In this document: in pieces, positions 23,397-44,924 of the stretch
How the letters are laid out: each line of letters begins with the position of its first letter
How positions within the stretch are numbered: position 1 is the first letter of the stretch
NCBI GenBank assembly: GCA_016183305.1
Contig: JACPEW010000011.1
Coordinates: 2,020-66,019 of the forward strand
Direction of reading: 5' to 3'
DNA: 64,000 nucleotides
DNA from: Candidatus Daviesbacteria bacterium
Lineage (GTDB): Bacteria > Patescibacteriota > Microgenomatia > Daviesbacterales > UBA10151
Made by a program: the position numbers and the translations under genes
Notes under the pieces: generated by a model
The model's database searches: none
Seen by the model: only the letters and a program-made list of their open reading frames with translations
What the model was told of the DNA's origin: nothing

Positions 23397-24512
23397 ATGG
23401 CAAAAAATAACGGTGTAACAACATTTACTTCTGAATCAGTCTGCGCCGGTCATCCGGATAAAATATGTGATGCAATATCTGATGCAATCGTTGATGCAGT
23501 TTTAACGCAAGATAGATTTGGCCATGTAGCCTGTGAGGTCTTGGCAGGATTTAATAGAGTAGTAATTTCCGGAGAAATTACGGCTAATGCTAGAGTAAAT
23601 TACGCGGATGTTGCTAGGCAACAAATAAAGAAATTGGGATATACAGATCCTAACTACAATTTTTCTGATAAATCTCCTGTCGAAGTCCATATTCATGAAC
23701 AATCCCCTGAAATTGGTGTAGGGGTTGATAAAAAAGGGGCAGGTGACCAGGGGATGATGTTTGGATATGCTTGCACAGAAACAACCTGCTTGATGCCGTT
23801 GCCTATTGCCATCGCTCATGCTCTAACCAAAAGAATGGATCAAGCCAGGGAAGAAAAAATAGTAAAATATTTAAGACCAGACGGAAAATCCCAAGTAACA
23901 ATTGAATATAGAGACGGAAAGCCTTATAAAGTAATTCAAGTTGTTATTGCTATTCCACACGAGGAATCTGTTAACTTAAATAAGGTTAAAGATGATATAT
24001 ACGAGTCAGTTGTTATACCTGTTTTAGATGTTTATGGATTTAAAATTAAGAAAGATCAGTTAATTGTCAATGGAACAGGGGTTTGGCATCATGGTGGTCC
24101 TGCTTCTGATTGTGGTTTAACAGGCAGAAAAATAGTGGTTGATGGATATGGTGGTTATGCCAGAGTTGGTGGAGGAGCATTTTCTGGAAAAGACCCAACA
24201 AAAGTAGATAGATCAGGAGCATATGCAGCAAGATTCCTGGCCAAAAATATTGTAGCTGCTAAATTAGCAGACAGGGCAGAAGTGAGACTGGCTTACTTTA
24301 TTGGAGCAAAAAAACCAACCATGCAGGATGTAGAAACCTTTGGGACCAACAAAAAATCTCATAAAGTAATACTTTCCTTCATGGAGAAGATCTTAGATAC
24401 CTCAGTGTCAGGAATATTAAAAGGTTTAGATTTACAAAGACCAATTTATTTACCAACAGCAGCTTATGGTCATTTTGGCAGAGAAGAATTCCCCTGGGAA
24501 AAAATAGTTTAG
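23397..24512 (+). CDS. metK: S-adenosylmethionine synthetase
   Basis: FTSESV..GHPDKICD, GAGDQGMMFGYA motifs. Confidence 0.95.
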   Translation: MAKNNGVTTFTSESVCAGHPDKICDAISDAIVDAVLTQDRFGHVACEVLAGFNRVVISGEITANARVNYADVARQQIKKLGYTDPNYNFSDKSPVEVHIHEQSPEIGVGVDKKGAGDQGMMFGYACTETTCLMPLPIAIAHALTKRMDQAREEKIVKYLRPDGKSQVTIEYRDGKPYKVIQVVIAIPHEESVNLNKVKDDIYESVVIPVLDVYGFKIKKDQLIVNGTGVWHHGGPASDCGLTGRKIVVDGYGGYARVGGGAFSGKDPTKVDRSGAYAARFLAKNIVAAKLADRAEVRLAYFIGAKKPTMQDVETFGTNKKSHKVILSFMEKILDTSVSGILKGLDLQRPIYLPTAAYGHFGREEFPWEKIV

Positions 24513-25297
24513 GAAAACTCCAAAATCATTGGTAAATGATCTGAGATAGGCATATCAGGTACTTGAAACTTCGTTACCTTGATATCAGAAGATACAAAAG
24601 TGTAATCAGCATACTTTTGAAAATTAGGTCCTCCATAAAAAGGGCTTAAATTACTTCTAGTTTTTCTGATATCAAATTCTCTAATTAAATTCCTCATATT
24701 TTTCCCGTAGATTTTAATGCTTTTAGTATCAGGTAATAAATTAAAATCCCCTACTAATAAAATTTTTGCCTCATTTTTTTGATCAATAATTTCTTTAACT
24801 TTCTGAGCTTCTTCTAAACGCTCAGGAGAATCTAGTTTATTGCCAGGCATAGGCCTGCCATGGAAATTAAAAATAACATATTGCTTATTGTTTATTTGAC
24901 AATTTATGAATTGTAAAGGAGTTGGTAAGTTAGAAAAATCTTCCTTTAACTTAGGAAAAGGCTGATCTTGAGAAACAATATAATTTGCTTGATAAGTAAT
25001 TTTTATTGAATTGTTAACCAAGATAGCTGATCCAGTAGTTGAATCAAAATTAATTGGATTTGCTTCATCGTCAAAGCTTTTGATTACAGGAAAATAAAAT
25101 ACTTGGAAATCAGGAAGAATTTGTTTGAACTCTGTTAATAAATTAGCCCTGATATTTCTATATTGTTTTACCTTTGATATAGTATCCTGCATTTCTTGAA
25201 AACAGAAAATATCAGTATTTAAAGATTGTTGTTTAATAAACTCAATAAGAGGTTTAAAGCATTTTCCACCCCAAGTATTAAGCGATATGAGTTTCAT
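24509..25297 (-). CDS. endonuclease/exonuclease/phosphatase (EEP, DNase I-like) family protein
   Basis: Starts MKLISLNTWGG; motifs FCFQEM, VGDFNLLPD, SDHLPMILEFS. The 641-aa ORF in the track is an artefactual read-through from the upstream recombinase/repeat. Confidence 0.75.
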   Translation of the reverse strand: MKLISLNTWGGKCFKPLIEFIKQQSLNTDIFCFQEMQDTISKVKQYRNIRANLLTEFKQILPDFQVFYFPVIKSFDDEANPINFDSTTGSAILVNNSIKITYQANYIVSQDQPFPKLKEDFSNLPTPLQFINCQINNKQYVIFNFHGRPMPGNKLDSPERLEEAQKVKEIIDQKNEAKILLVGDFNLLPDTKSIKIYGKNMRNLIREFDIRKTRSNLSPFYGGPNFQKYADYTFVSSDIKVTKFQVPDMPISDHLPMILEFS

Positions 25298-25332
25298 AAA
25301 TAGTATTCTAAGGATATGGGTGATAAAATACA

Positions 25333-25407
25333 ACGTGGTTACGGGGATTAGGTCACCGGTAGACCGCTCGAATGGGGTTCGAGAAGCAAAGAGTTCAATT
25401 CTCTTAT
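25333..25407 (+). tRNA. tRNA-Pro (anticodon GGG), CCA encoded
   Basis: Manual cloverleaf: acceptor CGGGGAT/ATCCCCG, D-stem GGTC/GACC, anticodon stem CTCGA/TCGAG with loop ATGGGGT (U33, GGG, G37), T-arm AAGAG-TTCAATT-CTCTT, discriminator A, CCA. Confidence 0.85.
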
Positions 25408-25513
25408 CCCCGACCAAGAGAGAAAAAGAGTCCGAAAAGGCGGAGGCGCTCCGTGCGTCGCCGCCCGCACGGAGCGCCGAGAAGCCCTTTTTATATTCTG
25501 CCGAGAGCTGCCG
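25402..25513 (+). repeat. att-like repeat copy 1 (tRNA 3' end CGACCA plus 105-bp segment with 13-bp GC hairpin)
   Basis: Near-identical inverted copy at 26959-27062 (1 mismatch); diverged direct copy at 28624-28729. Contains GGCGCTCCGTGCG-loop-CGCACGGAGCGCC. Confidence 0.8.
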
Positions 25514-26911
25514 ATTAGATAAAAAGAAGTTCGAGCCGACACGTTTTGCGAAGATTGCTAAATCTTCGCAATTATTTTTTGCGCGCGCGATTTTTTGCGC
25601 CTGTAAGGCGCAATTTACGAATTCTCTCATAGGTTCGAGCCAACTCGAACCAGTCTTTTCAACTTTGGCACTCTCTTCCTGTAATTTCAGTTTTGTTTCA
25701 AACAACTCGTTTTTCTTTTGTTTGTAGGTATCGGGGTCGACAACACTATCGAGAAAACTGTCTAAAAGTGTATTTTGTTTTCGGTCTACATCTTGAATTT
25801 CAGTTTTGAGATTTTGGATTGTTGTTTCTGATGATTGTTTTTCGGCTAACTCATCTCGCTCTAAAAATTTCAGCCAATGGTCAGCCCAGCTTTGAGGCAA
25901 TACCACATCAGAAACGACTTTTCTTATTTGATCTCCCATCTCAAAACCGGTGATTGGCGCTTGAGAACACGGACCAAGTTTCTTGGTGCAACGATAATAA
26001 ACGTAAGTACATTTACGATTTGTTGTTTTGTAAAATTTTGTATGCTGTTCGGCGGTGATCGCTGCCCCACATTCACTGCATCTAGCTAATCCCAAAAACG
26101 GAAAGCGGTATGATTTCTTGAAATGCTTAGTTCGCCTTTCCATTTCCTCTTGTACTTTCTGGAATAATTCTTTGGGAATAAAACACTTGTGATTTCCGTC
26201 ATGATACTCGTCGTTGTAAAACATAATACCGATATAAAACTTGTTTGAAAGTATCTGGCGGATTTCGTTGATATGCAGTGGTCTTCCGTTTTTGCGCTTC
26301 AGATCAAACTTGTAAACATATTTCGCAATATCCGTAAAAGTATGATTTCCTTCAGTAAACATTTCAAAAACTTTCTTTATTGCTTTTGACTTTTCTGGAT
26401 CGACGTCTATGCCTCTGGTTTTAGGATTGTTCACATACCCATAAGGGGCTTTTGCCGGTCAAACTCCGTTTCGTAGTTTTTGGCGCAAACCTCGTTTTAC
26501 GTTTTCGGAAAGATTGTCCACATAATATTTCGATTGGCCGAAGGCAATTGAAAGCATAAATTTACCTTGTGGTGTGTTTTCAAACCAAGAAGTTGGAAAT
26601 TTCAGGTCAAGTAGTTTGCCGGTATCGAGAAGATAAATAATTTTTCCGCCATCCATTGAGTTTCTGGCTAAACGATCGGGGTGCCATGCAACAATCCCGT
26701 TTGCGTGTCCCTTCTCGATTTTCTTCAGGACTTCGGCAAACTGCTCTCTTCCTGGCATTTTGGCGGTTTTTGCTTCCTCGACAAATTCGATAATCTCCAA
26801 ATGTTCTCGTTTGGCAAATTCTTTTAACTCGGCTATCTGGGCTTCGATAGATAAAATTTGCTTGTCTGCTTCGTCCCTCGATTTTCTGCAATACGCGATA
26901 TATTTTGTCAT
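25514..26911 (-). pseudogene. large serine recombinase interrupted by an in-frame TGA (26456-26458); 3' end runs into repeat copy 1 without a stop
   Basis: N-terminal catalytic domain (YCRKS..., DRLAR, VDNLSENVKRGL), in-frame TGA, then continuation PAKAPYGYVNN..., recombinase domain and Cys-rich zinc ribbon (CSECG...YYRCTKK), coiled-coil. TGA is used as a stop in rpsJ and rplD of this genome. Confidence 0.7.
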
Positions 26912-26958
26912 TTTGTTTTCTTCCTAAAATTTTTGCGTTTTATTTCCTTCTTTTTTTT

Positions 26959-27131
26959 CCGGCAGCTCTCGGCAGAATATAAAAAGGGCTTCTCGGCGCT
27001 CCGTGCGGGCGGCGACGCACGGAGCGCCTCCACCTTTTCGGACTCTTTTTCTCTCTTGGTCGAGATTTACGAAAAAGTTAGAACAGAATTTCGCAATTGT
27101 TAGCTCGGCCGCCTGCGGCGGCCTCGCTTCC
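26959..27131 (-). repeat. att-like repeat copy 2 (inverted; A-part plus B-part)
   Basis: 26959-27062 is the reverse complement of 25402-25513 including the cgaccaag junction. 27058-27131 is the reverse complement of 28557-28630 (1 mismatch). Confidence 0.8.
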
Positions 27132-27144
27132 TAACGTGTCAGCT

Positions 27145-27295
27145 CGAAAAGGATTTTGAGGCACAAAATCCTCAAAAAAAACGCAAAAATTTTAAAGAAC
27201 TTTTTTAAACTTCAAATGGCCGCCCCAGTTGAACTCAAACCCTTTCGGACTTGTCTGGGACGGCCATTAAAAAGCCGAAAGGGAAGTTTGAGTTC
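27145..27295 (-). ncRNA. candidate structured small RNA (promoter, nested stems/pseudoknot, terminator)
   Basis: Minus-strand TTGTAT-17-TATAGT promoter (27325-27330 / 27302-27307). Transcript predicted with stems AACUCAAAC/GUUUGAGUU, CUUUCGG/CCGAAAG and UGGCCGUCCCAG pairing with CUGGGGCGGCCA. Terminator GGAUUUUG-loop-CAAAAUCC+UUUUCG. Homologous to the region at 28740-28880. Confidence 0.4.
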
Positions 27296-27358
27296 AATTA
27301 CACTATATAAAATTTTCAAAATAAATACAACCATTGACTACTCAAAATTCCGGAAAAA

Positions 27359-27781
27359 ATGTATAATGAAATCAGAACTGTGGAGAAAAATTACTTGAAC
27401 AAGGAAATTTTAATTACTACTGATCCTCAGAAAATTCACTTCATTCTTCGTGCCGCCTACTTAGTAGCAAATCTAATAATAAATCAGGTTTTACGCAGTT
27501 TTACCTTTGCGCTTTCTCTCTTTGGCAAAGTGGAACCGAATATATACATTAATTTCATCATTGGGTTAGTTATAAGTGAGATAAGCTACAGAGTAGCCGT
27601 TAAAATTTACCAAACTAAATTTAACTTACTAAAAAACAAATTAGACAACGAACCTCCAGAAGGTGTTAAAATCATTCGGGGGTATTATGTGTTTCTTATT
27701 AATGCCTCTTTAGCAACGATTTTAAATTTTATTTTTTTCTTAGGCTATTTTATTTTCGTAAAATTAAATAGGGGAATATAA
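27359..27781 (+). CDS. hypothetical small membrane protein (2-3 predicted TM helices); start uncertain
   Basis: ORF in AT-rich cargo. Hydrophobic stretches LRAAYLVANLIINQVL, FIIGLVISEISY, ATILNFIFFLGYFIFV. Stop lies 3 nt before the next gene. Confidence 0.5.
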   Translation: MYNEIRTVEKNYLNKEILITTDPQKIHFILRAAYLVANLIINQVLRSFTFALSLFGKVEPNIYINFIIGLVISEISYRVAVKIYQTKFNLLKNKLDNEPPEGVKIIRGYYVFLINASLATILNFIFFLGYFIFVKLNRGI

Positions 27782-27783
27782 AT

Positions 27784-28509
27784 ATGAAATTAGTTTTTAA
27801 TGTAAATAGTATATTCAGTTATTTAGGCAAAAACAAAAAGGGAAACGCCACGGAACCAAATATCATTAAAGGTTTAGAACAAGTCGTCGGTAGTCTTGAA
27901 GAAATTAAGGATAATAATTTACGAAAAGAGCTAAAAAAGTATATTGAATTTTTTCACCCGGATGTACATGCACATGTATTGCTAGAATTTAACTTCCAAA
28001 ATAAGACATATTACTATTCTCATTTGATTTGGGGTGAGGATTTCTATATTAGCGAGTCTTTCATAGACTGTATTTCTATAAGCGATCAAACTTTTTTGAT
28101 TACAAATTCGTATATGGGTAGACTATTTTTGGAAAACCCTAGAAAAATTGCGGATTATTCATACGATGTACAAGTGTATGTCGAAGCAAAGGAAAACAGT
28201 AATACTATTCCACAAACAGTAGAGACTAAGTTGCAACTGTTTGGAATATATGATCTCGAAAAAGAGAGAAAAAGCGTTGAGGGTAATCTGAATAATTCGG
28301 GTAGTGATCCTTTATCAAAAGTGTCTTCGGCCATCTTTGGTAAAGTTACTAGCGAAACTGATCTTTTGCCTAAAGAGCCTACAATTGTGTTTTATTGGGA
28401 TAAAAACCAGAATAAGAAACTGTTAACTTACCAATTTACATCGAAGAACTTGGAGTATTTTGGGCAAGCCAATATTTTAGGCAATATAATAAAATTGTTT
28501 TCTCAGTAA
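27784..28509 (+). CDS. hypothetical protein (241 aa), no recognisable domain
   Basis: AGGGG SD 9 nt upstream; translationally coupled to the preceding ORF. AT-rich relative to flanks. Confidence 0.6.
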   Translation: MKLVFNVNSIFSYLGKNKKGNATEPNIIKGLEQVVGSLEEIKDNNLRKELKKYIEFFHPDVHAHVLLEFNFQNKTYYYSHLIWGEDFYISESFIDCISISDQTFLITNSYMGRLFLENPRKIADYSYDVQVYVEAKENSNTIPQTVETKLQLFGIYDLEKERKSVEGNLNNSGSDPLSKVSSAIFGKVTSETDLLPKEPTIVFYWDKNQNKKLLTYQFTSKNLEYFGQANILGNIIKLFSQ

Positions 28510-28556
28510 ATAAGCGATTGCTCCGCAATCGCAAAATCGCGCGCGCAAAAAATAAC

Positions 28557-28729
28557 GGAAGCGAGGCCGCCGCAGGCGGCCGAGCTAACAATTGCGAAAT
28601 TCGGTTCTAACTTTTTCGTAAATCTCGACCTGGAGAGACTTTTGGAATTTTGAGCCTGGATTGCTCTTTGCGGGAGGGGGCGCGCAGAGCTCTGAAAAGC
28701 CCTTTTTGTACGAGACTGCAAGTTGCCGG
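28557..28729 (+). repeat. att-like repeat copy 3 (B-part plus diverged A-part; putative attR)
   Basis: 28557-28630 is near-identical to the reverse complement of 27058-27131. From cgacc onward it is a diverged homolog of 25407-25513. Confidence 0.75.
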
Positions 28730-28739
28730 AGTGAAAAAG

Positions 28740-28880
28740 AGCAAAAAACGGAAGGTCGCGAAAATTTTTTAAAGAACTTTTTTTCAATAGTTTTAAACTT
28801 AAAAGGCGCAACCGGGGAACTCAACTTCAAATCGCTTCTAATTGTCCGGTTGCGCCATTTAAAAGAGCAATCCCATCCAA
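28740..28880 (-). terminator. terminator/3'UTR structure of LemA-TPM operon; homolog of sRNA-like module at 27145-27295
   Basis: 11-bp perfect stem GGCGCAACCGG/CCGGTTGCGCC followed on the minus strand by UUUUAAGUUU. Shares ttaaagaactttttt...aaactt...gaactcaa motifs with 27180-27240. Confidence 0.45.
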
Positions 28881-28901
28881 AGTAATAAATTAGATAAGAG
28901 A

Positions 28902-28979
28902 TTAGGGTATTCTTTCTTGTCCGTAGGATAATGCACCAATCAATCCTAAAATAACAACAATTATTAATACAATCTTCAT
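28902..28979 (-). CDS. small hydrophobic peptide (25 aa) MKIVLIIVVILGLIGALSYGQERIP
   Basis: AGAGGT SD 8 nt upstream; lies downstream of the TPM gene in the same orientation. Confidence 0.3.
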   Translation of the reverse strand: MKIVLIIVVILGLIGALSYGQERIP

Positions 28980-29031
28980 ATTTTTTACCTCTAGTTGCAG
29001 CACATGATGTTTAGGAAAATCTTGTCAATGG

Positions 29032-30075
29032 TTACCAACTACCACTAGCTCCACCTCCACCTGATCCGCCCCCTCCAAACCCACCACTACTGCCTGAGCC
29101 AAAAAAACCACCCCCAGTAATCCACCAATTTGTTGCTTTACCAGCTTTTTTAAGCTTATTATAATTTCTAGAAAGACGCCAATCTAATAATAACCCCAAA
29201 GCACCAAACACTACTGCACAAATTATACCCGTTTCTATTGATTTAACATAGAATCCCAACATAACTCCTAGAAAAAATCCTACTAAACCACCAAACCAGA
29301 TGTTTTTACTTCTAGCCAAAAACGAAAAAAAATAAATTACCGCTACCAAAACCGCTACCCCAATTACAATGAAAAACCCACCACTGATGAGATAATAACT
29401 TCCGTATAATGCCAGCAATATAAACATTAGTAAGACTGCAAGTATTTTGGATTTTGGTGTAGCTTTTTTAAGTATAGACCTCCATACAAAAACAACAATT
29501 ACAATAAGCGCTCCTATAGAACCCAAACCTCTGAGGATATTATCAACTGCATGATAGGAACTTTGAGAAGAAGATTCTTGAGGATTTCCTATCCGATTTT
29601 GTATGGCGGTAACTCCGTTAGTAATCCCCTGATAATAATTTTCCTTTTTGAATTCTGGTGCTATGATATTCCTAATAATTTCTCCTGCCTGACTATCGGT
29701 GATACTTGACTCTAAACCATAACCTACCTCAATTCTCATCTTCCTGTCATCTATCGCTGCTAAAAATAAGATGCCATTATCTCTTGCCTTTTTACCCATT
29801 TTCCATTCTTCAAAAGTCCTAACAGTAAAATCAGTTATGTCTTGACCATTCAGACTTTGTACAGTAGCAACAGCGATCTCATTTGTGGTTCGTTGCCCGT
29901 AGTCCTTCAATATGTTCTCTAAAGTGTTTTTTTGATCAGAGGTTAAAACACCAGCAAAGTCATTGACATAACCAATAGGGGCAGGGATGTGATTTGCATA
30001 AACACCAGTACCAAAGAAAAATAATAAAACTACAGAGAGAATAACGGTAATGAGGTTACGGATAGCATTTGTCAT
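29032..30075 (-). CDS. TPM-domain (YgcG-like) membrane protein with Gly-rich C-terminal tail
   Basis: The N-terminal signal/TM, YVNDFAGVL...ILFLAAIDDRKMRIEVGYGLE and C-terminal TM helices plus GGGSGGGG tail resemble TPM/YgcG family proteins. Confidence 0.8.
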   Translation of the reverse strand: MTNAIRNLITVILSVVLLFFFGTGVYANHIPAPIGYVNDFAGVLTSDQKNTLENILKDYGQRTTNEIAVATVQSLNGQDITDFTVRTFEEWKMGKKARDNGILFLAAIDDRKMRIEVGYGLESSITDSQAGEIIRNIIAPEFKKENYYQGITNGVTAIQNRIGNPQESSSQSSYHAVDNILRGLGSIGALIVIVVFVWRSILKKATPKSKILAVLLMFILLALYGSYYLISGGFFIVIGVAVLVAVIYFFSFLARSKNIWFGGLVGFFLGVMLGFYVKSIETGIICAVVFGALGLLLDWRLSRNYNKLKKAGKATNWWITGGGFFGSGSSGGFGGGGSGGGGASGSW

Positions 30076-30078
30076 TCA

Positions 30079-30651
30079 TTATGGAAACTGTACTTTGGGC
30101 ACGTTTTCGCTATCTTGAACAGATTGGAAATAAGTTTTAGTTGAGAAGCCAAAAACCCCAGCAAAAAGTTTACCAGGCAATGTTGTAGCTGAAGTGTTGT
30201 ATTGCTGAACAAGCTCATTATACCTCCGTCTTTCGACGGCTATCCTATTTTCTGTACCAGCTAATTCATCTTGCAGCTTCAAAACAGCTTGATCGCTTTT
30301 TATCTGAGGATAATTTTCAAAAACAGCAAAAAGTCGAGACAATGTGCCTTCCAGTTGGTTAGCTGCTTGTACTTTGGTCTCCGGGGTTTGAGCGCCAGCA
30401 TACTGAATCCTTGCTGCATTCACATCGCCAAATATTTTTTGCTCTTGTTTTTGTAACCCTTTAACTGATTCTACCAAGTTGGGGATTAAATCATATCTTC
30501 TTTGATATTGAACTTCAACTTGTTTCCATTGACCTTCAATAGCATTAGTCTGAATAATAAAGGAATTGTAGTAACCTACAGAAGCAATGATTAAAACAAC
30601 TATAACAGCAACTATTCCAACCACCGTAGTTAACGTAAACGGAAGTTTCAT
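30079..30651 (-). CDS. LemA family protein
   Basis: N-terminal TM plus YNSFIIQTNAIEGQWKQVEVQYQRRYDLIPNLV is a typical LemA pattern. LemA-TPM is a common pair. Confidence 0.8.
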   Translation of the reverse strand: MKLPFTLTTVVGIVAVIVVLIIASVGYYNSFIIQTNAIEGQWKQVEVQYQRRYDLIPNLVESVKGLQKQEQKIFGDVNAARIQYAGAQTPETKVQAANQLEGTLSRLFAVFENYPQIKSDQAVLKLQDELAGTENRIAVERRRYNELVQQYNTSATTLPGKLFAGVFGFSTKTYFQSVQDSENVPKVQFP

Positions 30652-31062
30652 CTGATTTTAGTATGGAGAATAAAAGACCTATTGTCAAGCAGAATTCTCT
30701 CTCCTGGCTAAGCTTAAATATCAATATAGCCAGAATGGTAGAAATTGGCCAATTGTTTCCAACCTCTTTAAATTTTCTGTATAGTACGGGGAGTAATAAG
30801 TTTTTGCGCATAGGTTGGGTGGGGCAAGAAAACATTAAATTGTTTTTGTGTTCCTGTCCCGCAACAGCGGGACTATAAGTAATAAGCAAAGCTTGCCTTT
30901 TGCCTTCGGCAAAACGTAAAAATCGCGCGCATTCTGTCTTTGTCTTTGCAAAAAATACATAGAGCGGGGCCGGAGGCCGAGCAGATGGAGTGGCGCGCCT
31001 ACCGGTTCGATTTAAAGCAAGTTCGGATTTTTCGATAAAGGTCGACATAATTTTTGGGGACT

Positions 31063-31100: not shown

Positions 31101-33539
31101 ATGGCTCAAAATAACTCCAGTAATAATGAAGCCAAAAAAGCTGCAATCTCTGCAGCAATGGCTCAAATCCAAAAACAATATGGTACAGGTTCTATTATGC
31201 GTCTTGGTGAACGCGTTGAAAAATTTGCTACAGATACTATTCCAACTGGTTCTATTGCCTTAGATTTAGCCTTGGGTGTTGGCGGTCTCCCCAAAGGCAG
31301 GATTATTGAGATTTATGGACCTGAAGCTGGCGGAAAATGCGTTACAACAGATACTGTAGTATTTACAGAATATGGTATGGTACCAATTGGTTTTTTAGGC
31401 GATCTCAATCAGAAGGGGTTTCAACCAAAGGAAATAAAGGTATATTCGGAAGGTGGGTTTGCCTATACAAGCCACTTTTATAATAGTGGAGTACAAAAAA
31501 CTATTAAAATAAAGACTTCCTATGGTTTTGAATTAGAAGGTACACCAAATCACAGAGTTCGTGTTTTGGATAATCAGGGAGAGTATATTTGGCGGCGGCT
31601 TGATCAATTAAAGATTGATGACAGTATTGCTATCCAAAGAGGGCAATATTGTTTTGGTTCAGGAGCTGATTTATCAAACTTTGGATATATAAAAAACAAA
31701 AACAACAGTCGTGGTAAAGATTTTAATCCCCCGTCTGTTCTTACATCTGATTTAGCAAGGCTAATGGGTTATCTAGTTGGTGATGGTACTTGTACGTCAG
31801 GGGGTTTTAATAAAAATGACATCCAGATTACTATTGCAGACGATGAAATAGCTGAAGATTTTTCAAATCTTTGTCTGCGTATTTTTGGAGAAACTCCGAA
31901 AATAACTTTAGATAAGCGTACTAAAAATACACAAAACTTCAGAATTCATAATGCAAAGGCGCGAGTTTTTCTAGCATATGCTGGTTTAGATTATGTTAGC
32001 GCTGAAGGAAAAGAGATTCCTTATTCAGTAATGCAAGGCTCGCAGACAATAGTAGCTAACTTTTTGTCAGCATTGTTCGAGACTGATGGTTGTTTTAGTA
32101 CTAATACTATTGAGTATTATACAAAATCTATAGAACTTATTAAGCAGCTGCAGCTTGTTTTGTTGAATTTCGGTATAGTTTCGAGAATTAAACCTAGACA
32201 AATTAAGAATTATCCAGGTAATACTTATTATTATTTATATATAGATGGAATTAATGATCAAAAAATCTTCTATAAGGAGATAGGATTTATATCCAAGAGA
32301 AAGAATGAAAAACTTCTTTTTTATATCCAACGGGAGCGTCAATATCAAAGCAACAGGGACACAGTTCCTTTTATAAATCATAAGATTGATGAATTGATGA
32401 AAGATTATAGAATTTCTCTAGGCAGTAGTACCAGACAGCATTGGGATGCGGTATATGATTATCGATCTGCTACTCCTGGTCATTCTTCCTTGACTTACCC
32501 CAGATTAAATAAAATTTTAAACATTTTCCAACCGGTAGAAAAATTATCCGTATACCAGGAGTTAAAAGAAATATTTTTGCGGAATATTTTTTGGGATAAG
32601 ATAGTAGAAATGCAACCTTCCAAGTCATTGGTAGTTGATTTTACAGTGCCGGAAACATTATCTTTTTTTGGAAGTGGTTTTATTAATCATAATACTACAG
32701 TGGCCCTTCATGTTATAGCTGAAGCTCAAAAAAAAGGCGGGGTAGCAGCTTTTATTGATGCAGAACATGCTTTAGACCCGCAAAGAGCTCAAAAGATTGG
32801 AGTAAATTTAGATGATTTGCTTATTTCTCAACCAGACACAGGTGAGCAGGGTTTGGAAATTGCAGAAAGTTTAATCCGGTCTGGTGGGATTGATGTGTTA
32901 GTCATAGATTCTGTAGCAGCATTAGTTCCTAGGTCAGAACTGGAAGGAGAGATGGGAGATTCTTCCATGGGTGTGCAAGCCCGTTTGATGTCTCAAGCCT
33001 TAAGGAAGTTAACTGGAGCAGTTTCTAATACCAATACCATTGTTATTTTCACAAATCAGTTAAGACAAAAAATTGGAGTGATGTTTGGTAATCCGGAAAC
33101 AACTACCGGAGGATTAGCCCTGAAATTTTATTCATCAATAAGATTGGATGTCAGAAAAATTGAGAATATAAAGGATGGGGATTTGGTGGTGGGTTCAAGG
33201 CACAGAGTTAAAGTAGTAAAAAATAAAGTCGCTCCCCCATTCAGGATTGCTGAATTTGATATGGATGAAAATGGTATTTCACATGAAGGAGAGCTTTTAG
33301 ATGTAGGAATTGAGCTAGGAATCTTGACTAAATCAGGTGCTTTTATTAAATGGAAGGAAAAGTTATTAGGCCAGGGCAGAGCTGCATCTGCTGCTTACTT
33401 AAAAGAGAATAAAAAAGAGGCTGAAAAATTAGAAAAAGAGATTAGAGATGCTTGGACTAAGCAAAAAGAAGGCAAAGAAAAAATCGTAGTTGGTCAAGAA
33501 GAAGAAACTTCAGCAGGTGCTTTAGAAGAAGCGGTTTAA
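31101..33539 (+). CDS. recA: recombinase RecA containing a 452-aa intein with LAGLIDADG homing-endonuclease domain
   Basis: N-extein ends GPEAGGK. Intein starts at Cys (CVTTDTVVF) and ends HN before TTVALHV. Spliced product restores the P-loop [23 protein letters not shown]. Two LAGLIDADG blocks ([22 protein letters not shown]). Confidence 0.9.
31338..32693 (+). mobile_element. RecA intein (P-loop insertion) with LAGLIDADG endonuclease
   Basis: Cys1 ... His-Asn / Thr+1 boundaries; Hint blocks plus double LAGLIDADG. Confidence 0.85.
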
Positions 33540-36616: not shown

Positions 36617-37576
36617 ATGCTCCGAGTTCTAAACTCTTTTAAAGTCCGATCCGGGTTGAAATTAGTTGATTACCGTTTAGGAGAAGATTTAGATTCTCAA
36701 GAGATTAAAGTCTATTTCCAATCCAGGGATTACAAAATTGGAAACTTACAAAATAGTGGTAGGCATGTCACAGGAATTTTAACTAAAGCAGGAGAAAAAT
36801 ATTTCCTAAAATTATCAACCAGTGAAGGAATTAGTATTGTTACCCAAAACGAATTTAACTGGAATAATTATTTTAATGCTAATAATCTTAATAATAAGTT
36901 TCATGTCCCCAAAAACTTCGATAGTGGTTATTTTAAAGATAAATACTTTTATTTAATTACCAACTATTTTAATGGCAAATTGCTTTGCCAATTCCGTGAC
37001 CAATACCAAAATCTTAATTTATTAACTAAGTCTCTTACGCAAATTATAGAGCTTGCTGAAAACATACAGCAGCTCCCAGACTATACATTTGCTATTGCTC
37101 AATACCAAGATGGAGATTCAAAATTAAGGTTTATTAATAAAGCGAACGCTTGGTTTGATGATATACCAATTAACATTCGTGACAAATATAATCTTCAATT
37201 ACTTATTAAAGTAGCTATAAAAGGAATTGATAAATTATTTAGCAAGCCTAGGCATGGAGATTTTGCCCCTTGGCATATTATGACGCTGGGAAATAATAAA
37301 TTAGGGTTGATTGATGGTGAACATGCTTTATCAGATGGGGTAGAAAATTATGATATTTGTTATTTTATTCAGCGGGTTTTTAGTGTCTTAAAAAAACCTG
37401 ATATTGCTGAAAATATTTATTTGGAATTGAGAAAAAGAAAATATGAAGTAGAGAAATTAAAAACAATACTGGCAGCAAGGGCAATAGGAGGATTTTTAGA
37501 TGAATCATTAAACAGTAACCCAGATTATATGTTTGCTAATGCTTTTAAGGATTGGGTTCTAGCACTAAATGATTAG
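36617..37576 (+). CDS. protein kinase-like/aminoglycoside-phosphotransferase-fold protein
   Basis: HGDFAPWHIM (HGD catalytic-loop-like) and LIDGEHA (DxE/D metal-binding-like) motifs. Asn/Tyr-rich. Confidence 0.5.
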   Translation: MLRVLNSFKVRSGLKLVDYRLGEDLDSQEIKVYFQSRDYKIGNLQNSGRHVTGILTKAGEKYFLKLSTSEGISIVTQNEFNWNNYFNANNLNNKFHVPKNFDSGYFKDKYFYLITNYFNGKLLCQFRDQYQNLNLLTKSLTQIIELAENIQQLPDYTFAIAQYQDGDSKLRFINKANAWFDDIPINIRDKYNLQLLIKVAIKGIDKLFSKPRHGDFAPWHIMTLGNNKLGLIDGEHALSDGVENYDICYFIQRVFSVLKKPDIAENIYLELRKRKYEVEKLKTILAARAIGGFLDESLNSNPDYMFANAFKDWVLALND

Positions 37577-37580
37577 GTTG

Positions 37581-38801
37581 CTAAAAGGGGTTTTTAGATA
37601 AGTTAATTGCAAAAAATATATTAATTAGGTTTCTTGGAAGAAATACTCCAGTAAGATAAGGATATAATAAAGCAAAGCTGAGTATGATTAGCAATATTAT
37701 TACTAATGCTAATTTTTTTGCTTGTTGATTAGCTAAAAGCTTATTTAGTTGATAGCCTAAAGCTAAGCTTAAAAAAGGCACTGACGGGCTAAAGTGGTAT
37801 AAAAACATTATTCTGGGAGATGCTGCCCAAGGTAACCAAAAAGCTAAAAATCCTAAAATAATAAGGAATAAATTTACAAATCTTTTTCTGATAACCTCTA
37901 TAGCAGTCAATATGATGGCAATACTGCCTGCCCAAAAGAGTGCTGGATTGCCAGAAGTAAAGATATTAGCCATGGTGTTTTTTTGATAATCTACAAAATA
38001 CCAAACAGGGTAAAGATTTAAAGGCCAAGACCACCACGGTGAAGTATATGTATGAGTGGCTTTTAGATTAGTATGATACCACCACATTTGCTGTTGCAGC
38101 TCCTTAAATTGGTCAAAACTATGTCCCAGTAAAAAGAAAGGTAAATAACTGATAAAATAAATGATTGGAGGAAGCATAATAAAAAAGGTAATTTGGCGGT
38201 AATGTTTATCTTTAAGTAGTATCGGTAAAAAGATTAGGTAAGCGTACGCGCCTGCCCATTTACTGGATATAGCCAGTCCTAAAAAAATAGCTGAGATAAT
38301 AAATCTTTTGTTAAGCAGAAAAAATAAAGCAGCCAGAAAAAAAGTAACATAATAAATATCATTCATGCCTGTTCTTGACTGGACAAAATTAAGGCCATCT
38401 AGAGAGAAAGCAAATGCAGCTATTAAAGCTGCATTTTGATTTTTTAATAGCCTAATACCTAACAGATAAACTAAATAAACAGATAAAATACCTAATATAA
38501 CTCCAGGCAATCTATAGGCCCAGGCATCCTGTGTACCAGTGATAAACATTGAAACAGCCATTAGTTCCTTGGCTAAAGGAGGATGAGTCCATTCAAATGC
38601 TACCCCAGGTGGTGGGCTAGTCCACCATTCCCAGGCTTCTTTGCTTCCTTTTAAATATTCTTTAGCAGTAAAAGCATGATAAACTTCATCAAATACAAAC
38701 TTATTTGGATAGTCTAATTTATATAAGCGCAAAAAGGCAGTCAGAAGCAGAAGCAGAATTAATATTTTTTTTGGACTAACTTCTTTTTGCAGCAATCTCA
38801 T
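37581..38801 (-). CDS. GT39/PMT-family (phospholipid-carrier-dependent) membrane glycosyltransferase
   Basis: The VFDEVYHAFTAKEYL motif in the first loop and multiple TM helices resemble the PMT/PMT_2 family. Confidence 0.7.
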   Translation of the reverse strand: MRLLQKEVSPKKILILLLLLTAFLRLYKLDYPNKFVFDEVYHAFTAKEYLKGSKEAWEWWTSPPPGVAFEWTHPPLAKELMAVSMFITGTQDAWAYRLPGVILGILSVYLVYLLGIRLLKNQNAALIAAFAFSLDGLNFVQSRTGMNDIYYVTFFLAALFFLLNKRFIISAIFLGLAISSKWAGAYAYLIFLPILLKDKHYRQITFFIMLPPIIYFISYLPFFLLGHSFDQFKELQQQMWWYHTNLKATHTYTSPWWSWPLNLYPVWYFVDYQKNTMANIFTSGNPALFWAGSIAIILTAIEVIRKRFVNLFLIILGFLAFWLPWAASPRIMFLYHFSPSVPFLSLALGYQLNKLLANQQAKKLALVIILLIILSFALLYPYLTGVFLPRNLINIFFAINLSKNPF

Positions 38802-40017
38802 GTTTGAGTATATTAATACTAATTAAAATAAAAAGACTAAAAGAAATCAATGACAAACCCTTGCTATTTTCATTTAATAAGTTATAAACAGTTGGATTAT
38901 ATAGTAATTTTGGTAACTGAAAATATACTTCATTGAAGTAAACATAAACATAGTATAAATTAAAAAAATGCAAAAAAGTTAATAAACTGGTTAGTACTAG
39001 TAATAATCTATCTCTATATAGAGAGCTTAATAATATTAAAAAAATTAACGCAGGATAAAGATATCTCTCATGTACTTTAGTGGGTAAAAAGAAGAATCCT
39101 AAAAAAGCTAGTGTTGCTAATGCGTAGATGGATAGTTTCTTCCTAGTATAAAAGTATCCCAGTATAATCCAGTAAGAACTAAATAAAATAATACCTATAG
39201 TTTGATAAGAGAGATTATTCCAAATCGTCTTATCAGGAATCCAAAACCCAACTACCCCCCAAAAATTGTAAGCATTTAAAGAGGTATAAGGATACTCTCC
39301 TGCTGTATTAAGAATATGTTGAACAAGACTTATTGTTGTTTGGTTTGGGAAAAACGGAACAGCTAAAACAAAAATTATTAAAAGTCCTGGTATTGTTAAT
39401 TTAATTATATTTGAAAGCTTGAAATGGTGTACAAGATAAATAGCTAGTATTGGGGCTATAGCTATAGCTTGTGGTTTGATTAAAAAAGCTACACCAAACA
39501 TAATTGAACTTAAAATTAAGTGATTATCTTTTAAGGCAATTAGAGTAATCAATAAAAATAATGCCAAAACACTATCGATTTGTCCCCAGATGGAACTGTT
39601 AAATAAAATAGCTGGATTAAATACAATTAAGCTAAGAGCAAGTAAAGCAAGTATAAGGGAAACTTTTTTCCTAACTTCTTGATATATCAATATCCCAATT
39701 ATTAAATCACAAATAATTGCTGGCATTTTAAGCAGGAAATAAAAATTGTTATCAGGAATTAGTAACTGATTTTTTAAAAATCCCAGCAGACCGAGAACAT
39801 ATAAATATCCTGGTGTGTAGTCAGTAAAAATATCTTTGCTGTAAAACTGGGCAAAATTTAAGTTATTTAATCTTATTGCCCAAGCAAACCAGTCATTAAT
39901 ATCAATTTGAAACCCGGAAAGCGGTGCTAGTAAAAGCCTAAAAGTAATACCGGCCAAAAGTAAGAGAATTAATATTTTATTTTCTTTATTTAAAAATATA
40001 GTTTTCACCCTTACCAT
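38776..40017 (-). CDS. polytopic membrane protein, putative GT-C-fold glycosyltransferase
   Basis: About 11 hydrophobic segments; overlaps the downstream gene start by 26 nt. Confidence 0.55.
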   Translation of the reverse strand: MVRVKTIFLNKENKILILLLLAGITFRLLLAPLSGFQIDINDWFAWAIRLNNLNFAQFYSKDIFTDYTPGYLYVLGLLGFLKNQLLIPDNNFYFLLKMPAIICDLIIGILIYQEVRKKVSLILALLALSLIVFNPAILFNSSIWGQIDSVLALFLLITLIALKDNHLILSSIMFGVAFLIKPQAIAIAPILAIYLVHHFKLSNIIKLTIPGLLIIFVLAVPFFPNQTTISLVQHILNTAGEYPYTSLNAYNFWGVVGFWIPDKTIWNNLSYQTIGIILFSSYWIILGYFYTRKKLSIYALATLAFLGFFFLPTKVHERYLYPALIFLILLSSLYRDRLLLVLTSLLTFLHFFNLYYVYVYFNEVYFQLPKLLYNPTVYNLLNENSKGLSLISFSLFILISINILKHEIAAKRS

Positions 40018-40049
40018 ATTTTAAACTTTTTGTATTAATATAAGTAGAT

Positions 40050-42026
40050 ATGGAATTTAATTTAATTCTTTTGGTTGTAGGATTTATTTTTACTTTTTTT
40101 CTGCCTGGTTTTCTTGTTATAGAAACTTTTTTCTCTGAACTTCTTTTCATACAGAAAATACCGCTTTATTTATTAATTAGTGTTTTAGTTTCAACCTATG
40201 CTGTCTATTTTGTGAGTTTAATATTTGGATTCTCTCAAAGCTCTATCCTTTTTACTATTCTAATCTTTCAACTTTGGTTAGCTATTTTTTTACTAAACAA
40301 GAGATTCAGTATTAAGCAATTTTATTTTCTGCTGTTTAAAAAAAATTTATATTGTCTGAAAGAGCATATGGTTGCTTTATTGACAAGCTGCGCAATCTTT
40401 ACTTTATTCCTAATTGCATTATATCCGGCAATTTTTTCATTTTTTAATAATTACTATGTAATGGCTTCTGTTAATTGGCAAGATACAGCAATGCATCAGT
40501 CGATTATCCAAACTATCTCCCAAGGAAACTTCCCCCCACAAGCACCTTATTTTAGCGGTCAACCTTTAAATTATTACTATTTTATTGATTTTCATACTGC
40601 TATTTTGCAAACTCTTTATGGGGATTTTTTTCCAAGAATTTTAGTTTATGATAATCCATTTTTTGTATTAATGTTTTTTCTATCTATTTATGCTTTAAGT
40701 TATAGTATATTCAAAAATAAATTATCAGCAATAATTGCAGGCTTGCTTGCTGTGTTTATTGGTAATTTTCTATTCATTAGATTTTTTAAGGATATTTATA
40801 TCAATTTAGATAATTCTAATAATTTTATAAATACAATAATAAATCTAGCTGCTATACGGAGTTATACCTTAGATAATGGCCAATTAATGCAGATGGTGCC
40901 AATGGCTGATTATTTTTTGCAGAATCGTCCAATGACGATAGGTTTGCCAACAGTAGCCGTGTTAATTCTGCTACTGGTGAATGGTCATGAAAAAAATAGC
41001 AGGAAATATTTTGTATTATCTAGCTTATTAACAGCAATGCTGTTTAAATTTCAATTATTCGCATTTGGTATTTCAATAATTATTTTTCTATTAAGCTGGT
41101 TTAGCTTTTTGAATGATAATTTTAAAAAAGAAATTAGTAAATTAGTCCGCTTAGTTAGTTTTTTAGCAGCATTTTCTGTACCTGTTTGGTTACTCTTTAG
41201 AAATAATAACTATGTATTAGAAACTTTTTTAAATAATTTTCGTTTAGGGGCTTGGGATAAGACTAAAGATTTTTATTGGTATTTACAATTTCCTTTTGCT
41301 AACTTTGGAGTGCTATTTATTCTATTCTTATTTTTTGTTTTATTGATAACCCTAAAAAAGGTAAATTTAACTGGAGGATTAAAGCTTTTGTTAATTCTAG
41401 GGATTATTTTATCCGTTATCCCTTTTGTTGTTCATTTTACAATTAATGATGGAGATATGCTTAAGTTTTTCTATTTTGCTATGATCCCTTTTTCTATAAT
41501 TTCCGGTTTAATCTTACAAAAGGTTTGGCGTAGTTCATATCTTGGACCCTTATTAGTAATTTTACTAATAGTTATTTCTTCTACTAATAGTTTGTTAACT
41601 TTAGCGTCAAGTTTTTTTAATAAGTATCAAGGGTATTCACAAGCGGATTATCAAGTTGGAATGTGGATCAGAAATAACAGTTTGCCGCAATCAGTTTTTT
41701 TATCCTTGCCTACTGTACATTCTCCAATATCTGATATTGGGGGAAGATTAAGAGTGTTATCTTACACAATGTGGCCTTATTCTCATGGTTTTAATAAGGG
41801 AGTGGATAATGTTTTCAGCAGACAAGCTGATATTGAAGGTATTTATCAATACCCCTCAGATACTGAAAACGTTAAAAGAATATTTAGCAAATATGATATA
41901 AACTATGTTTATTTAGGATCAGAAGAGAAAAATAAATATCCTTTTACTAAACAAATGTTTGACCAGCAGGCTTATCTTAAATTGATTTATGACTTTGCTG
42001 ATGTGCAAATTTATCAAATATTATGA
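40050..42026 (+). CDS. large polytopic membrane protein (658 aa), putative GT-C-like
   Basis: Many TM helices in the N-terminal two-thirds plus a C-terminal soluble domain. Confidence 0.55.
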   Translation: MEFNLILLVVGFIFTFFLPGFLVIETFFSELLFIQKIPLYLLISVLVSTYAVYFVSLIFGFSQSSILFTILIFQLWLAIFLLNKRFSIKQFYFLLFKKNLYCLKEHMVALLTSCAIFTLFLIALYPAIFSFFNNYYVMASVNWQDTAMHQSIIQTISQGNFPPQAPYFSGQPLNYYYFIDFHTAILQTLYGDFFPRILVYDNPFFVLMFFLSIYALSYSIFKNKLSAIIAGLLAVFIGNFLFIRFFKDIYINLDNSNNFINTIINLAAIRSYTLDNGQLMQMVPMADYFLQNRPMTIGLPTVAVLILLLVNGHEKNSRKYFVLSSLLTAMLFKFQLFAFGISIIIFLLSWFSFLNDNFKKEISKLVRLVSFLAAFSVPVWLLFRNNNYVLETFLNNFRLGAWDKTKDFYWYLQFPFANFGVLFILFLFFVLLITLKKVNLTGGLKLLLILGIILSVIPFVVHFTINDGDMLKFFYFAMIPFSIISGLILQKVWRSSYLGPLLVILLIVISSTNSLLTLASSFFNKYQGYSQADYQVGMWIRNNSLPQSVFLSLPTVHSPISDIGGRLRVLSYTMWPYSHGFNKGVDNVFSRQADIEGIYQYPSDTENVKRIFSKYDINYVYLGSEEKNKYPFTKQMFDQQAYLKLIYDFADVQIYQIL

Positions 42027-43177
42027 AAATATTACTTCTTTTTATTACAACACTAGTTATCTATTCAATCTCCGCTTTTGGTAATGATACTCCCTATAAT
42101 TACTTTATTTATTTAGCAGATGCATTTTTACATGGACAACTTTATGTCACAGAAAGCTTTCCTTGGTTAAATGAACTAATAAAATGGCAAGGTCACTTAT
42201 ATGTAGTTTATCCACCTATGCCAGCTATAATTTTGATGCCTTATGTATTTTTGTTAGGAAAAGGAGCTTCTCAAACTCTATCTTCTATTCTCTTAGGATC
42301 TGTTAATAGTGTTTTGGTTTATCTTTTGATTAAAAGATTAAATTATTCTGTAAAAACCGCTATTTTAGTTGCAATATCATTTGCTTTTGGTACAAACCAT
42401 TGGTATTTGTCCAGTGTTGGTTCAGCATGGTTTTTAGCTCATATTACTGCATTGTTTTTTTTGCTTCTTGCTTTGTTAGAAACCTTTGGAAAACAAAGAT
42501 TATTATTAATAGGAATATTGTTAGGGATGAGCTTTTGGGCAAGGACTACTGTAGTTTTTACTATATTCTTTTTTTATGTTTATTTTTTAAATAAGTTTTG
42601 GCCTTTAAACAGGAAAAATCTTTATAACTTTTCAGTTCTTAATTTAGGAATAATATTTTTTGTTTTACTAGACGCAACATATAATTTTTTAAGATTTGGA
42701 AATTTTAGTCCTCTTTCTCCTTATTCTTTAATCCCTGGAATAGCACAAGACCCAATTTTTCAACAAGGTTTCATGAATATAGCATATATCCAAAGACACA
42801 TAGAAGCTCTTTTTCTGAAATTACCGGTTTTTTCCTCCTCTCCTCCTTTTATAATTCCTTCTTTGCATAGCACTGCTATTTGGTTTACAAGTCCAGTGTT
42901 GTTGTATTCGTTAAGGGCAAAAAAATCTTTACTAATGTTAGCTTGTTGGGTAGCTATTATTGTAACGCAATCTGTAATTGCACTATGGGGAGGAGTAGGA
43001 TTTGCCCAATTTGGTTATAGGTTTGCTCAAGACTTTATGCCTTTTGTTCTAATTTTAGTAGCTTCTGGAATAGGACAAAAACCAACAAAATTAGCATATT
43101 TTTTGTTATGTATAAGCATATTAGTAAATTTATGGGGAATAGTGATGGTAAATATGTTTAATAGGTGGACTATCTAA
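42023..43177 (+). CDS. polytopic membrane protein (384 aa), putative glycosyltransferase/polymerase-like
   Basis: Multi-TM; overlapping start/stop with neighbours. Confidence 0.55.
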   Translation: MKILLLFITTLVIYSISAFGNDTPYNYFIYLADAFLHGQLYVTESFPWLNELIKWQGHLYVVYPPMPAIILMPYVFLLGKGASQTLSSILLGSVNSVLVYLLIKRLNYSVKTAILVAISFAFGTNHWYLSSVGSAWFLAHITALFFLLLALLETFGKQRLLLIGILLGMSFWARTTVVFTIFFFYVYFLNKFWPLNRKNLYNFSVLNLGIIFFVLLDATYNFLRFGNFSPLSPYSLIPGIAQDPIFQQGFMNIAYIQRHIEALFLKLPVFSSSPPFIIPSLHSTAIWFTSPVLLYSLRAKKSLLMLACWVAIIVTQSVIALWGGVGFAQFGYRFAQDFMPFVLILVASGIGQKPTKLAYFLLCISILVNLWGIVMVNMFNRWTI

Positions 43178-44922: not shown

Positions 44923-44924
44923 GG

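Follow-up and report, generated by a model that had tools for sequence, protein, structure and literature searches.

Two small integrative elements of a large serine recombinase family, probably arrayed in tandem at the 3' end of a tRNA-Pro gene of Candidatus Daviesbacteria

How does a bacterial chromosome come to carry, directly downstream of a tRNA gene, three copies of one long repeat, the middle copy of which is inverted? The question is raised by a stretch of 64,000 nucleotides (called the window below) of a Candidatus Daviesbacteria bacterium (assembly GCA_016183305.1, contig JACPEW010000011.1), in which a tRNA-Pro(GGG) gene is followed by a gene for a large serine recombinase (LSR) on the opposite strand and by two cargo open reading frames (ORFs). 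A preliminary description of the sequence had read the repeats as attachment (att) sites of an insert of about 3.2 kb, and had offered an integrative element with an invertible segment and two nested insertion events as possible origins. The comparison with related loci reported here indicates that the 3' end of the tRNA-Pro(GGG) gene is probably occupied by a tandem array of two small integrative elements of the same family, a young and an older one.

The three copies were recovered at the positions described earlier, both by a repeat finder and by a sensitive self-BLAST of the region, and the latter found no further copy in the whole 64-kb window. The A arms of copies 1 and 2, compared as reverse complements, differ at one of 103 bases, and the B arms of copies 2 and 3 at one of 74. 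Copy 3 spans 28557-28729; its A part, called A', is a diverged homolog of the A arm of copy 1 (about 72% identical), and the homology continues to 28776. The sequence CGACC is common to all three copies, each of which splits from the others directly behind it, so that the junctions read tRNA..CGACCA|A, B..CGACCA|A and B..CGACC|A'. The core CGACCA consists of the last base of the acceptor stem, the discriminator base and CCA. Copies 1 and 2 are inverted repeats around the recombinase gene and copies 2 and 3 are inverted repeats around the cargo, as had been proposed. The A arm of copy 1 contains a G+C-rich hairpin of 13 bp (25445-25478) with T-runs on both sides, and its minus strand encodes a conserved tail of the recombinase, RQLSAEYKKGFSALRAGG..SLLV. 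Directly before copy 3 lies a fragment homologous to the 3' end of the recombinase gene, which includes a perfect inverted match of 23 nt to 25572-25594.

Judged from these junctions, the three repeats are the attL (tRNA|A), an internal inverted attP (B|A) and the attR (B|A') of an LSR element of 3.2 kb, and the 3' end of the tRNA gene together with its T-arm would be the left half of the target site, attB. An attP can be reconstructed from the two element-side arms, and the same joined B|A sequence is physically present inside the element. The young element (25417-28630) reads, in this order, tRNA|A, the recombinase gene on the opposite strand, a conserved motif termed box 1, the inverted A|B, a second box 1, an RNA motif, the cargo and B|right flank (Table 1).

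Table 1. Features of the tRNA-Pro(GGG) locus, with positions in the window
Feature	Position	Strand	Basis or remark
tRNA-Pro(GGG), encoded CCA	25342..25416	+	ARAGORN; Rfam tRNA, 55 bits
Core CGACCA of the putative attL	25411..25416	+	Common to tRNA 3' end and putative attP; junction comparison across loci
A arm, copy 1, element side of the putative attL	25417..25513	+	Sequence, repeat finder
Large serine recombinase gene	25417..26911	-	Start codon at 26911; TGA at codon 151 (26461-26459)
Motif GTCGGCTCGAACTTCTTTTTA in the recombinase 3' coding region (codons VGSNFFL)	25520..25540	-	Synonymous-site conservation
Box 1, copy (i), AACGCAAAAATTTTA...	26925..26945	-	Directly upstream of the recombinase ribosome-binding site and ATG; inverted repeat
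Internal inverted attP-like site, intact	26959..27131	-	A (reverse complement) 26959-27056, core TGGTCG 27057-27062, B (reverse complement) 27063-27131
Box 1, copy (ii)	27174..27200	+	Inverted relative to copy (i); the pair brackets the internal attP-like site
Structured RNA (or single-stranded DNA) motif	27203..27301	- (recombinase-sense)	Covariance-model match, 82 bits
Cargo ORF 1, 140 aa, hydrophobic	27359..27781	+	No family match
Cargo ORF 2, 241 aa	27784..28509	+	ORFan; a single homolog cluster among 5.8 billion proteins
Fragment homologous to the recombinase 3' end (KIARAKNN region)	28515..28556	+	Inverted repeat; sequence reading
B arm, copy 3, with core CGACC (28626-28630)	28557..28630	+	Element side of the putative attR; right end of the young element
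A' arm (28631-28729), then spacer and box 1 (28730-28785) of the older element	28631..28785	+	Identity to L023, L026 and L060
Second copy of the RNA motif, older element	28790..28884	-	Covariance-model match, 58.9 bits
TPM-domain and LemA genes, cargo of the older element	29032..30651	-	Pfam; position between RNA motif and distal B' arm
Conserved distal segment, older element	30768..30885	+	81-90% identity to L023, L060 and L077; also read in L026
B' arm with core CGAC (31043-31046), putative attR of the older element, right island edge	30917..31046	+	

This architecture is not peculiar to the window. Among 159 related loci fetched from assemblies of Patescibacteria, about 140 show the layout tRNA|A, recombinase, inverted A|B, variable cargo and B|X, where X is the right flank; thus, the nesting that had been considered as a possible outcome of two insertion events is a conserved design of the whole family. 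An inverted repeat of about 50-170 nt (319 nt in one case) brackets the recombinase gene in all but three of the loci with enough flank, and its downstream copy overlaps the 3' end of the gene, stopping a few bases into the tRNA. The distal inverted B pair was seen in 63 loci, with a length of about 45-145 nt and an identity of mostly 89-100% (84-89% in four), and brackets a variable segment of 0.6-7.5 kb. Within an element the repeat copies are at least 90% identical in most loci (67-80% in about ten), whereas between subfamilies the identity of A arms is only about 65-72%, a sign that the two copies evolve in concert. In the four closest relatives of the young element, the three junctions are tRNA..CCCCGACCA|A, B..ATCTCGACCA|A and B..ATCTCGACCA|X, the right flank being different in every one of them, and the three-junction pattern holds across subfamilies, each of which has its own core of 4-8 nt, taken from its tRNA and made up of the last bases of the acceptor stem, the discriminator base and CC(A). 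These relations are what would be expected for attL, attP and attR and speak for the proposed reading of the repeats as att sites. The unusual trait is that, by its sequence, an intact attP is kept, in inverted orientation, within the integrated element.

The right-hand limit of the mobile DNA differs from the earlier view, according to which the insert ended at about 28730 and the A part of copy 3 was chromosomal. A' is 89-95% identical to the A arms of three loci of another subfamily (L023, L026 and L060), and together with the next 39 nt it is 87-95% identical to their A arm plus the spacer on the recombinase side; the hairpin region that follows A' also matches the sister subfamily. Further to the right, 30768-30885 and 30917-31046 correspond to the distal segment and the B' arm of the sister subfamily, B' being met 2.3 kb beyond the spacer and RNA motif. 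Mobile DNA thus runs on to 31046, where the B' arm ends with ...AAAGGTCGAC. At 31047 (ATAATTTTTGGG, upstream of recA), directly behind B', homology resumes with the locus L015, which has the same flanking genes as the window, namely metK, a gene of the endonuclease/exonuclease/phosphatase family, tRNA-Pro and recA. A' is therefore read as the left end of an older, recombinase-less element of the sister subfamily (28631-31046), and the whole island, most probably, as the tandem array from 25417 to 31046. Since the edge of B' coincides with resumed synteny, the expected empty site is tRNA-Pro followed by 31047 onward, not by the 28630-28729 segment that had been named in the preliminary description. 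As compared with the family layout, the older element has lost both the recombinase gene and the internal site. Its cargo stretch (29032-30651) has no nucleotide BLAST match in L015, which between the same two chromosomal points carries an element of the young type and a different LSR element with two ORFs without family match. In that locus, the different LSR gene (531 aa) and the two upstream ORFs occupy 1573-4801, between recA and the young-type element, and the 3' end of the gene abuts the attR of the latter; this is a second kind of tRNA-Pro-associated element.

A tandem array of this kind would follow from an LSR that recognises the universal T-arm together with a short tRNA-specific core and that performs the crossover at the extreme 3' end of the tRNA gene, so that the tRNA stays intact and the right-hand sequence of the target is free. 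Newcomers would then insert between the tRNA and a resident element, displacing the resident outward. For the window, integration of the young element would amount to recombination of its attP with tRNA|A', the attL of the older element, which would yield tRNA|A and a chimeric B|A'; the latter is the junction found in copy 3. The right half of the target (X) showed no conservation across the compared loci, which explains how the left end of a resident element can act as target flank.

The left half of the target has a counterpart in the element. The B arm carries a T-loop-like motif, GTTCGAA. In 51 of 71 B arms the distance between this motif and the core is 22 nt, as compared with 18 nt in 45 of 59 tRNAs; in the window, the two distances are likewise 22 nt and 18 nt. 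The outer motif of attB thus seems to recur in attP, displaced outward by about 4 bp. In the model for the LI integrase, the zinc-ribbon motifs of attP and attB half-sites are reportedly shifted by about 5 bp relative to each other, and the shift of 4 bp in the T-loop motif would, by analogy, match this half-site model. The RNA motif was also considered as a guide to the tRNA target and found no support, as its helix sequences, read by eye, appear not to follow tRNA identity.

The recombinase itself has the features of an LSR: a catalytic domain with the nucleophilic serine (Resolvase, PF00239, E = 2e-22), followed towards the C-terminus by the Recombinase domain (PF07508, E = 6e-15) and a zinc ribbon (Zn_ribbon_recom, PF13408, E = 8e-6, just above the cut-off). 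The catalytic residues Arg9 and Ser11 are invariant in 23 aligned sequences, and the best structural match, over the full length, is SPbeta SprA/YokA (E = 3e-14). However, the gene is not intact: codon 151, which specifies tryptophan in all of 22 aligned homologs, is replaced by an in-frame TGA. An independent Logan contig (L007), which comes from a different run of the same study, has this TGA too. Reading TGA as tryptophan or glycine in an alternative code was rejected, because TGA terminates 9 of the 56 long ORFs of the window and genes are intact under table 11; a frameshift was rejected as well, the lesion being one in-frame stop codon. Downstream of the TGA, the recombinase frame stays open through the A arm and the antisense strand of the tRNA. 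Among the 159 relatives, 153 have no stop in the readable stretch (up to 480 codons), to which the window copy is an exception. From the sequence, the recombinase gene of the window is most likely a pseudogene, and because of the premature stop the element in the window is probably immobile by itself.

The 3' coding region of the gene contains a further signal. At almost every position of the motif GTCGGCTCGAACTTCTTTTTA, synonymous sites included, conservation among 102 family sequences is at least 90%, whereas the proteins of these members are only 51-90% identical to the recombinase of the window. The codons GGC TCG AAC are used in 77 of the 81 sequences that carry VGSN, and TCG and AAC in all 81. 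This conservation implies a constraint at the DNA or RNA level, and the motif, which resembles the tRNA T-arm and the B arm, probably serves, within the coding sequence, as a binding site for a protein or as an RNA element. The CGGC that follows the motif was tried as a second crossover core and dismissed, since it follows the Arg codon and does not change along with the core of each subfamily.

The recombinase belongs to a large clade. In the protein search, 7964 of the 8000 candidates scored matched at E <= 1e-20, the best relatives being 85-90% identical to the window recombinase, and confirmed relatives number 515 in GTDB genomes and 568 in JGI metagenomes, that is, at least 500 in each of the two collections. 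A convergent tRNA gene whose 3' end abuts the end of the recombinase gene or the A arm is present in about 115 loci, and the targeted tRNAs are of at least 15 species (Pro, Lys, Glu, Gln, Val, Gly, Trp, Leu, Thr, Ser, Ile, Phe, Arg, Met and Ala). One genome can have several recombinases at different tRNAs, as exemplified by L009, L034 and L055. As annotated, the proteins have near their C-termini a common ...NFFLSNRQLSAEYKKGF.ALRAGG...SLLVG, followed by divergent residues that look like translated antisense of tRNA genes. A phage or plasmid origin was considered and rejected, since IMG/VR contains no relative of the recombinase and annotated phage and plasmid recombinases are at most 27% identical to it. 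Literature searches found no paper describing the recombinase family, which, as far as we could find, is apparently undescribed.

Two further motifs accompany the internal attP. Among the non-coding motifs of the family, box 1 (AACGCAAAAATTTTAAAGAAC) is conserved best, and it is present in other loci; in the window, in addition to the two copies that bracket the internal site, another lies at 28755-28785. On a read-through transcript, the box 1 copies could pair and thereby hide the ribosome-binding site of the recombinase gene. Between box 1 and the cargo, a structured motif of about 100 nt was found in 36 of 79 genome loci and in both elements of the window; in the loci L009 to L086 it lies about 280-500 nt upstream of the recombinase start. 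Its helix P1 has 14 pairs, and in the main run of 13 pairs 98% of the cells are paired, with changes on both sides in 10 of 13; the outer part of helix P2 has 10 pairs, of which 90% are paired, with changes on both sides in 8. The covariation measures were above those of all 500 shuffles and collapsed when the 3' partners were slid by 1-3 columns. On the recombinase-sense strand, the non-Watson-Crick pairs comprise 81 G.U and 5 A.C, and therefore the folded strand is the one that reads toward the recombinase; a U.G pair is nearly invariant, being present in 28 of 32 sequences.

P1 and P2 are interleaved, with no linker between their 3' strands, so that full formation of both is impossible, and minimum-free-energy folds alternate between the two. 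We read the motif as a putative leader with two states, located upstream of both the internal attP and the recombinase gene. No family of Rfam 15 matches it, and a scan of 24500-30000 at E <= 1 returned only the tRNA and a sub-threshold chance match to a microRNA family, whereas a covariance model built for the motif, searched over 862 kb, matched at these recombinase-adjacent positions only. A small protein encoded in the hairpin region was rejected as an alternative, because its ATG lacks conservation and the covarying helices include G.U pairs that form on the opposite strand. A promoter scan gave 7 sites, as compared with 8 expected by chance.

Inverted sites bound both modules of the element, the recombinase module being enclosed by A repeats and the cargo module by B repeats, as would be the case in an invertible switch. 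The recombinase module has the same orientation in about 115 of 117 loci (about 98%) and is flipped in two, L070 and L098, in which tRNA, A, box 1 and recombinase follow each other and are all co-directional; the cargo module has the same orientation in 40 of 42 loci (about 95%) and is reversed in L077 and L111. The invertible segment suggested earlier is thus tenable only as a rare event, flipped isomers being present across genomes but infrequent. The older element of the window may bear on this point. Its A' is joined to the spacer that normally precedes the recombinase start, which suggests that its recombinase module had been in the flipped state. In a flipped module, the recombinase gene would lie directly downstream of the tRNA and be co-directional with it, and the box 1 copies would become direct repeats; a deletion between these would leave A', box 1, RNA', cargo' and B', as observed. 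The joint account, in which the internal inverted attP permits occasional inversion of the recombinase and cargo modules and a deletion between box 1 copies produced the older element, is speculative, and we put it forward tentatively, considering it somewhat more likely to fail than to hold. Another recombinase-less remnant, produced by a different deletion, is present at a tRNA-Gln gene (L034, 3640-4175); its order is tRNA core, a short palindrome of A and inverted A, inverted B arm, box 1 and RNA motif, and it appears that a deletion between the inverted repeats of the recombinase module removed this module.

It should be noted that several points weigh against the reading as integrative elements with att sites. 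No recombination directionality factor came to light; neither an empty site nor an excised circle nor an attB-only allele turned up for this species; and among 160 related loci there was no contig of at most 12 kb with a terminal overlap that would indicate a circular form, assemblies being a weak test. The position of the crossover is inferred from sequence identity, and any role of the internal attP is hypothetical. For characterised serine integrases, recombination of attL with attP is not known. Inversion of the modules, if it occurs, must be rare or strongly skewed, and a RecA-mediated flip between repeats of 100 bp would yield the same isomers without the recombinase. Logan contigs of the same population were inspected for alternative junctions, and these were rejected, as the contigs merely break at the repeats; an odd end in one of them (L002, 2042-2057) is a Nextera adapter (CTGTCTCTTATACACATCT).

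Other explanations of the repeats have to be weighed against the tandem array. That two independent insertions, nested by chance in this one genome, left the inverted repeats can be regarded as refuted: the locus does hold two elements of different age, but they lie side by side, the internal inverted B|A is part of the young element's own design, and the layout with matched A and B arms recurs at many tRNAs in assemblies from many projects. Even less can be said for a dispersed repeat of the repetitive extragenic palindrome (REP) or miniature inverted-repeat transposable element (MITE) type unrelated to the tRNA. Such an origin, which the preliminary description had named as a refuting case, would fit G+C-rich, hairpin-containing repeats in an A+T-rich genome, but it is extremely improbable, as the 64-kb window holds no other copy and the repeats of related genomes always accompany the recombinase and a tRNA 3' end. 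A device that switches frequently, in which the recombinase would invert, at a high rate, both the cargo and the gene that encodes it, in the manner of a phase switch or shufflon, would account for the long inverted repeats around both modules, for the occurrence of both orientations in nature and for the identity of within-element copies (usually 90-100%, far above that between A arms of subfamilies). We nevertheless consider it unlikely. The one dominant orientation argues against it, although a skewed equilibrium would still be compatible, a flip of the cargo alters no obvious coding or promoter junction, and the premature stop in the window recombinase means that no ongoing self-catalysed inversion is expected there.

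Similarly unlikely, in our estimation, is that the internal attP serves as a second functional integration site, which would imply a circle with two inverted attP sites and either integration in either orientation or an amplification like that of the 2-micron plasmid. A circle excised by attL x attR would of necessity contain two inverted B|A sites, and in L070 and L098 the tRNA adjoins the 5' end of the recombinase gene, as integration via the internal site would bring about. However, equal use of the sites predicts that about half of the loci have this arrangement, whereas about 2% do, and there is no replication gene, no circular contig and no IMG/VR relative. Another alternative denies the repeats any role in recombination and regards them as bidirectional terminators or insulators, or as recombinase-binding or regulatory sites, homogenised by gene conversion, with the internal attP as mere baggage. 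The G+C-rich hairpins beside T-runs in both A and B would suit this, as would the location of the internal site between the RNA leader and the recombinase start, bracketed by box 1. We regard it as rather doubtful: terminators need neither a precise core nor both half-sites nor a match of 100-170 nt, and only three loci with enough flank are without an internal copy. The lineages that carry these elements have very compact genomes, and the retention of the internal copy in spite of this counts against tolerated baggage. A more ambitious extension of the tandem-array reading would be a self-contained LSR system that reads the T-arm, is retargeted to any tRNA by its core and uses attP, box 1 and RNA motif as an inversion switch; this, too, is more of a long shot than an expectation. 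If it were true, the switch would move the recombinase between a silent (convergent) state and an active one, with read-through from the tRNA promoter, and would govern excision without a directionality factor.

Comparison with known systems helps to place the family. With the serine integrases of phiC31, Bxb1, Listeria A118 (LI) and SPbeta (SprA), the recombinase shares the Resolvase, Recombinase and zinc-ribbon domains and a long helical region, and the elements share with theirs asymmetric attP and attB sites, the outer motif lying about 4 bp further out in attP and identity being limited to a short core. Unlike in those systems, the target is the extreme 3' end of tRNA genes, addressed via a T-loop mimic, and an intact inverted attP is retained inside the integrated element. 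In contrast to prophages and conjugative elements, these elements measure 3-9 kb, lack genes for phage functions, conjugation or replication and show no recognisable directionality factor. Islands at tRNA genes and tycheposons likewise insert at tRNA 3' ends, accumulate in tandem at one tRNA and carry small, highly variable cargo; however, they mostly use tyrosine recombinases and duplicate a 3' segment, whereas here the recombinase is of the serine type, 4-8 nt are shared with the tRNA, and nested inverted repeats and an associated RNA motif are present. The elements moved by TnpX (Tn4451), TndX (Tn5397) and CcrAB (SCCmec), which were compared by domain content only, are also small, cargo-carrying and LSR-driven, but have different targets. 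These three apparently manage without a separate directionality factor, and an internal inverted site is not known for them. Hin/Gin and FLP/FRT of the yeast 2-micron plasmid resemble the present family in that the recombinase gene and a neighbouring segment are bounded by inverted sites and both orientations are found. There, however, the orientations occur at comparable frequency, while here one dominates, and the enzymes differ from an LSR, Hin and Gin being small, enhancer-dependent serine recombinases and FLP a tyrosine recombinase.

The very small genomes of the Candidate Phyla Radiation seem to gain and shed accessory genes via recombinase islets of 3-9 kb that are stacked at tRNA genes. 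Serine integrases are valued in genome engineering, and the clade might provide tools that combine universal reading of the T-loop with a short exchangeable core, any sequence on one side and perhaps independence of a directionality factor. Two puzzles that experiments could address are the conservation of the internal inverted attP and the two-state RNA with its covarying helices.

The two cargo ORFs of the young element have no match in Pfam, PHROG or PADLOC. A contig from another metagenome (L167, ENA ERZ28564302) matches 27309-28615 of the window, with the same two ORFs at 92% nucleotide identity; there the distal B arm breaks off about 10 nt short of the core, at a junction with unrelated sequence. 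In the related loci the cargo is diverse, apparently including peptide deformylase, transporters of the major facilitator superfamily, restriction-modification genes, a transposase and FolC-like and YhhQ-like proteins, as read by eye from translations and not from a Pfam scan. Beyond the island, the recA gene (31101-33539, plus strand; 812 aa) has an intein with a LAGLIDADG homing-endonuclease domain, while recA of L015 is intein-less (357 aa). The region from about 37000 to 45000 has a G+C content of 0.28-0.33, as compared with about 0.36 elsewhere in the window, and may be another acquired region.

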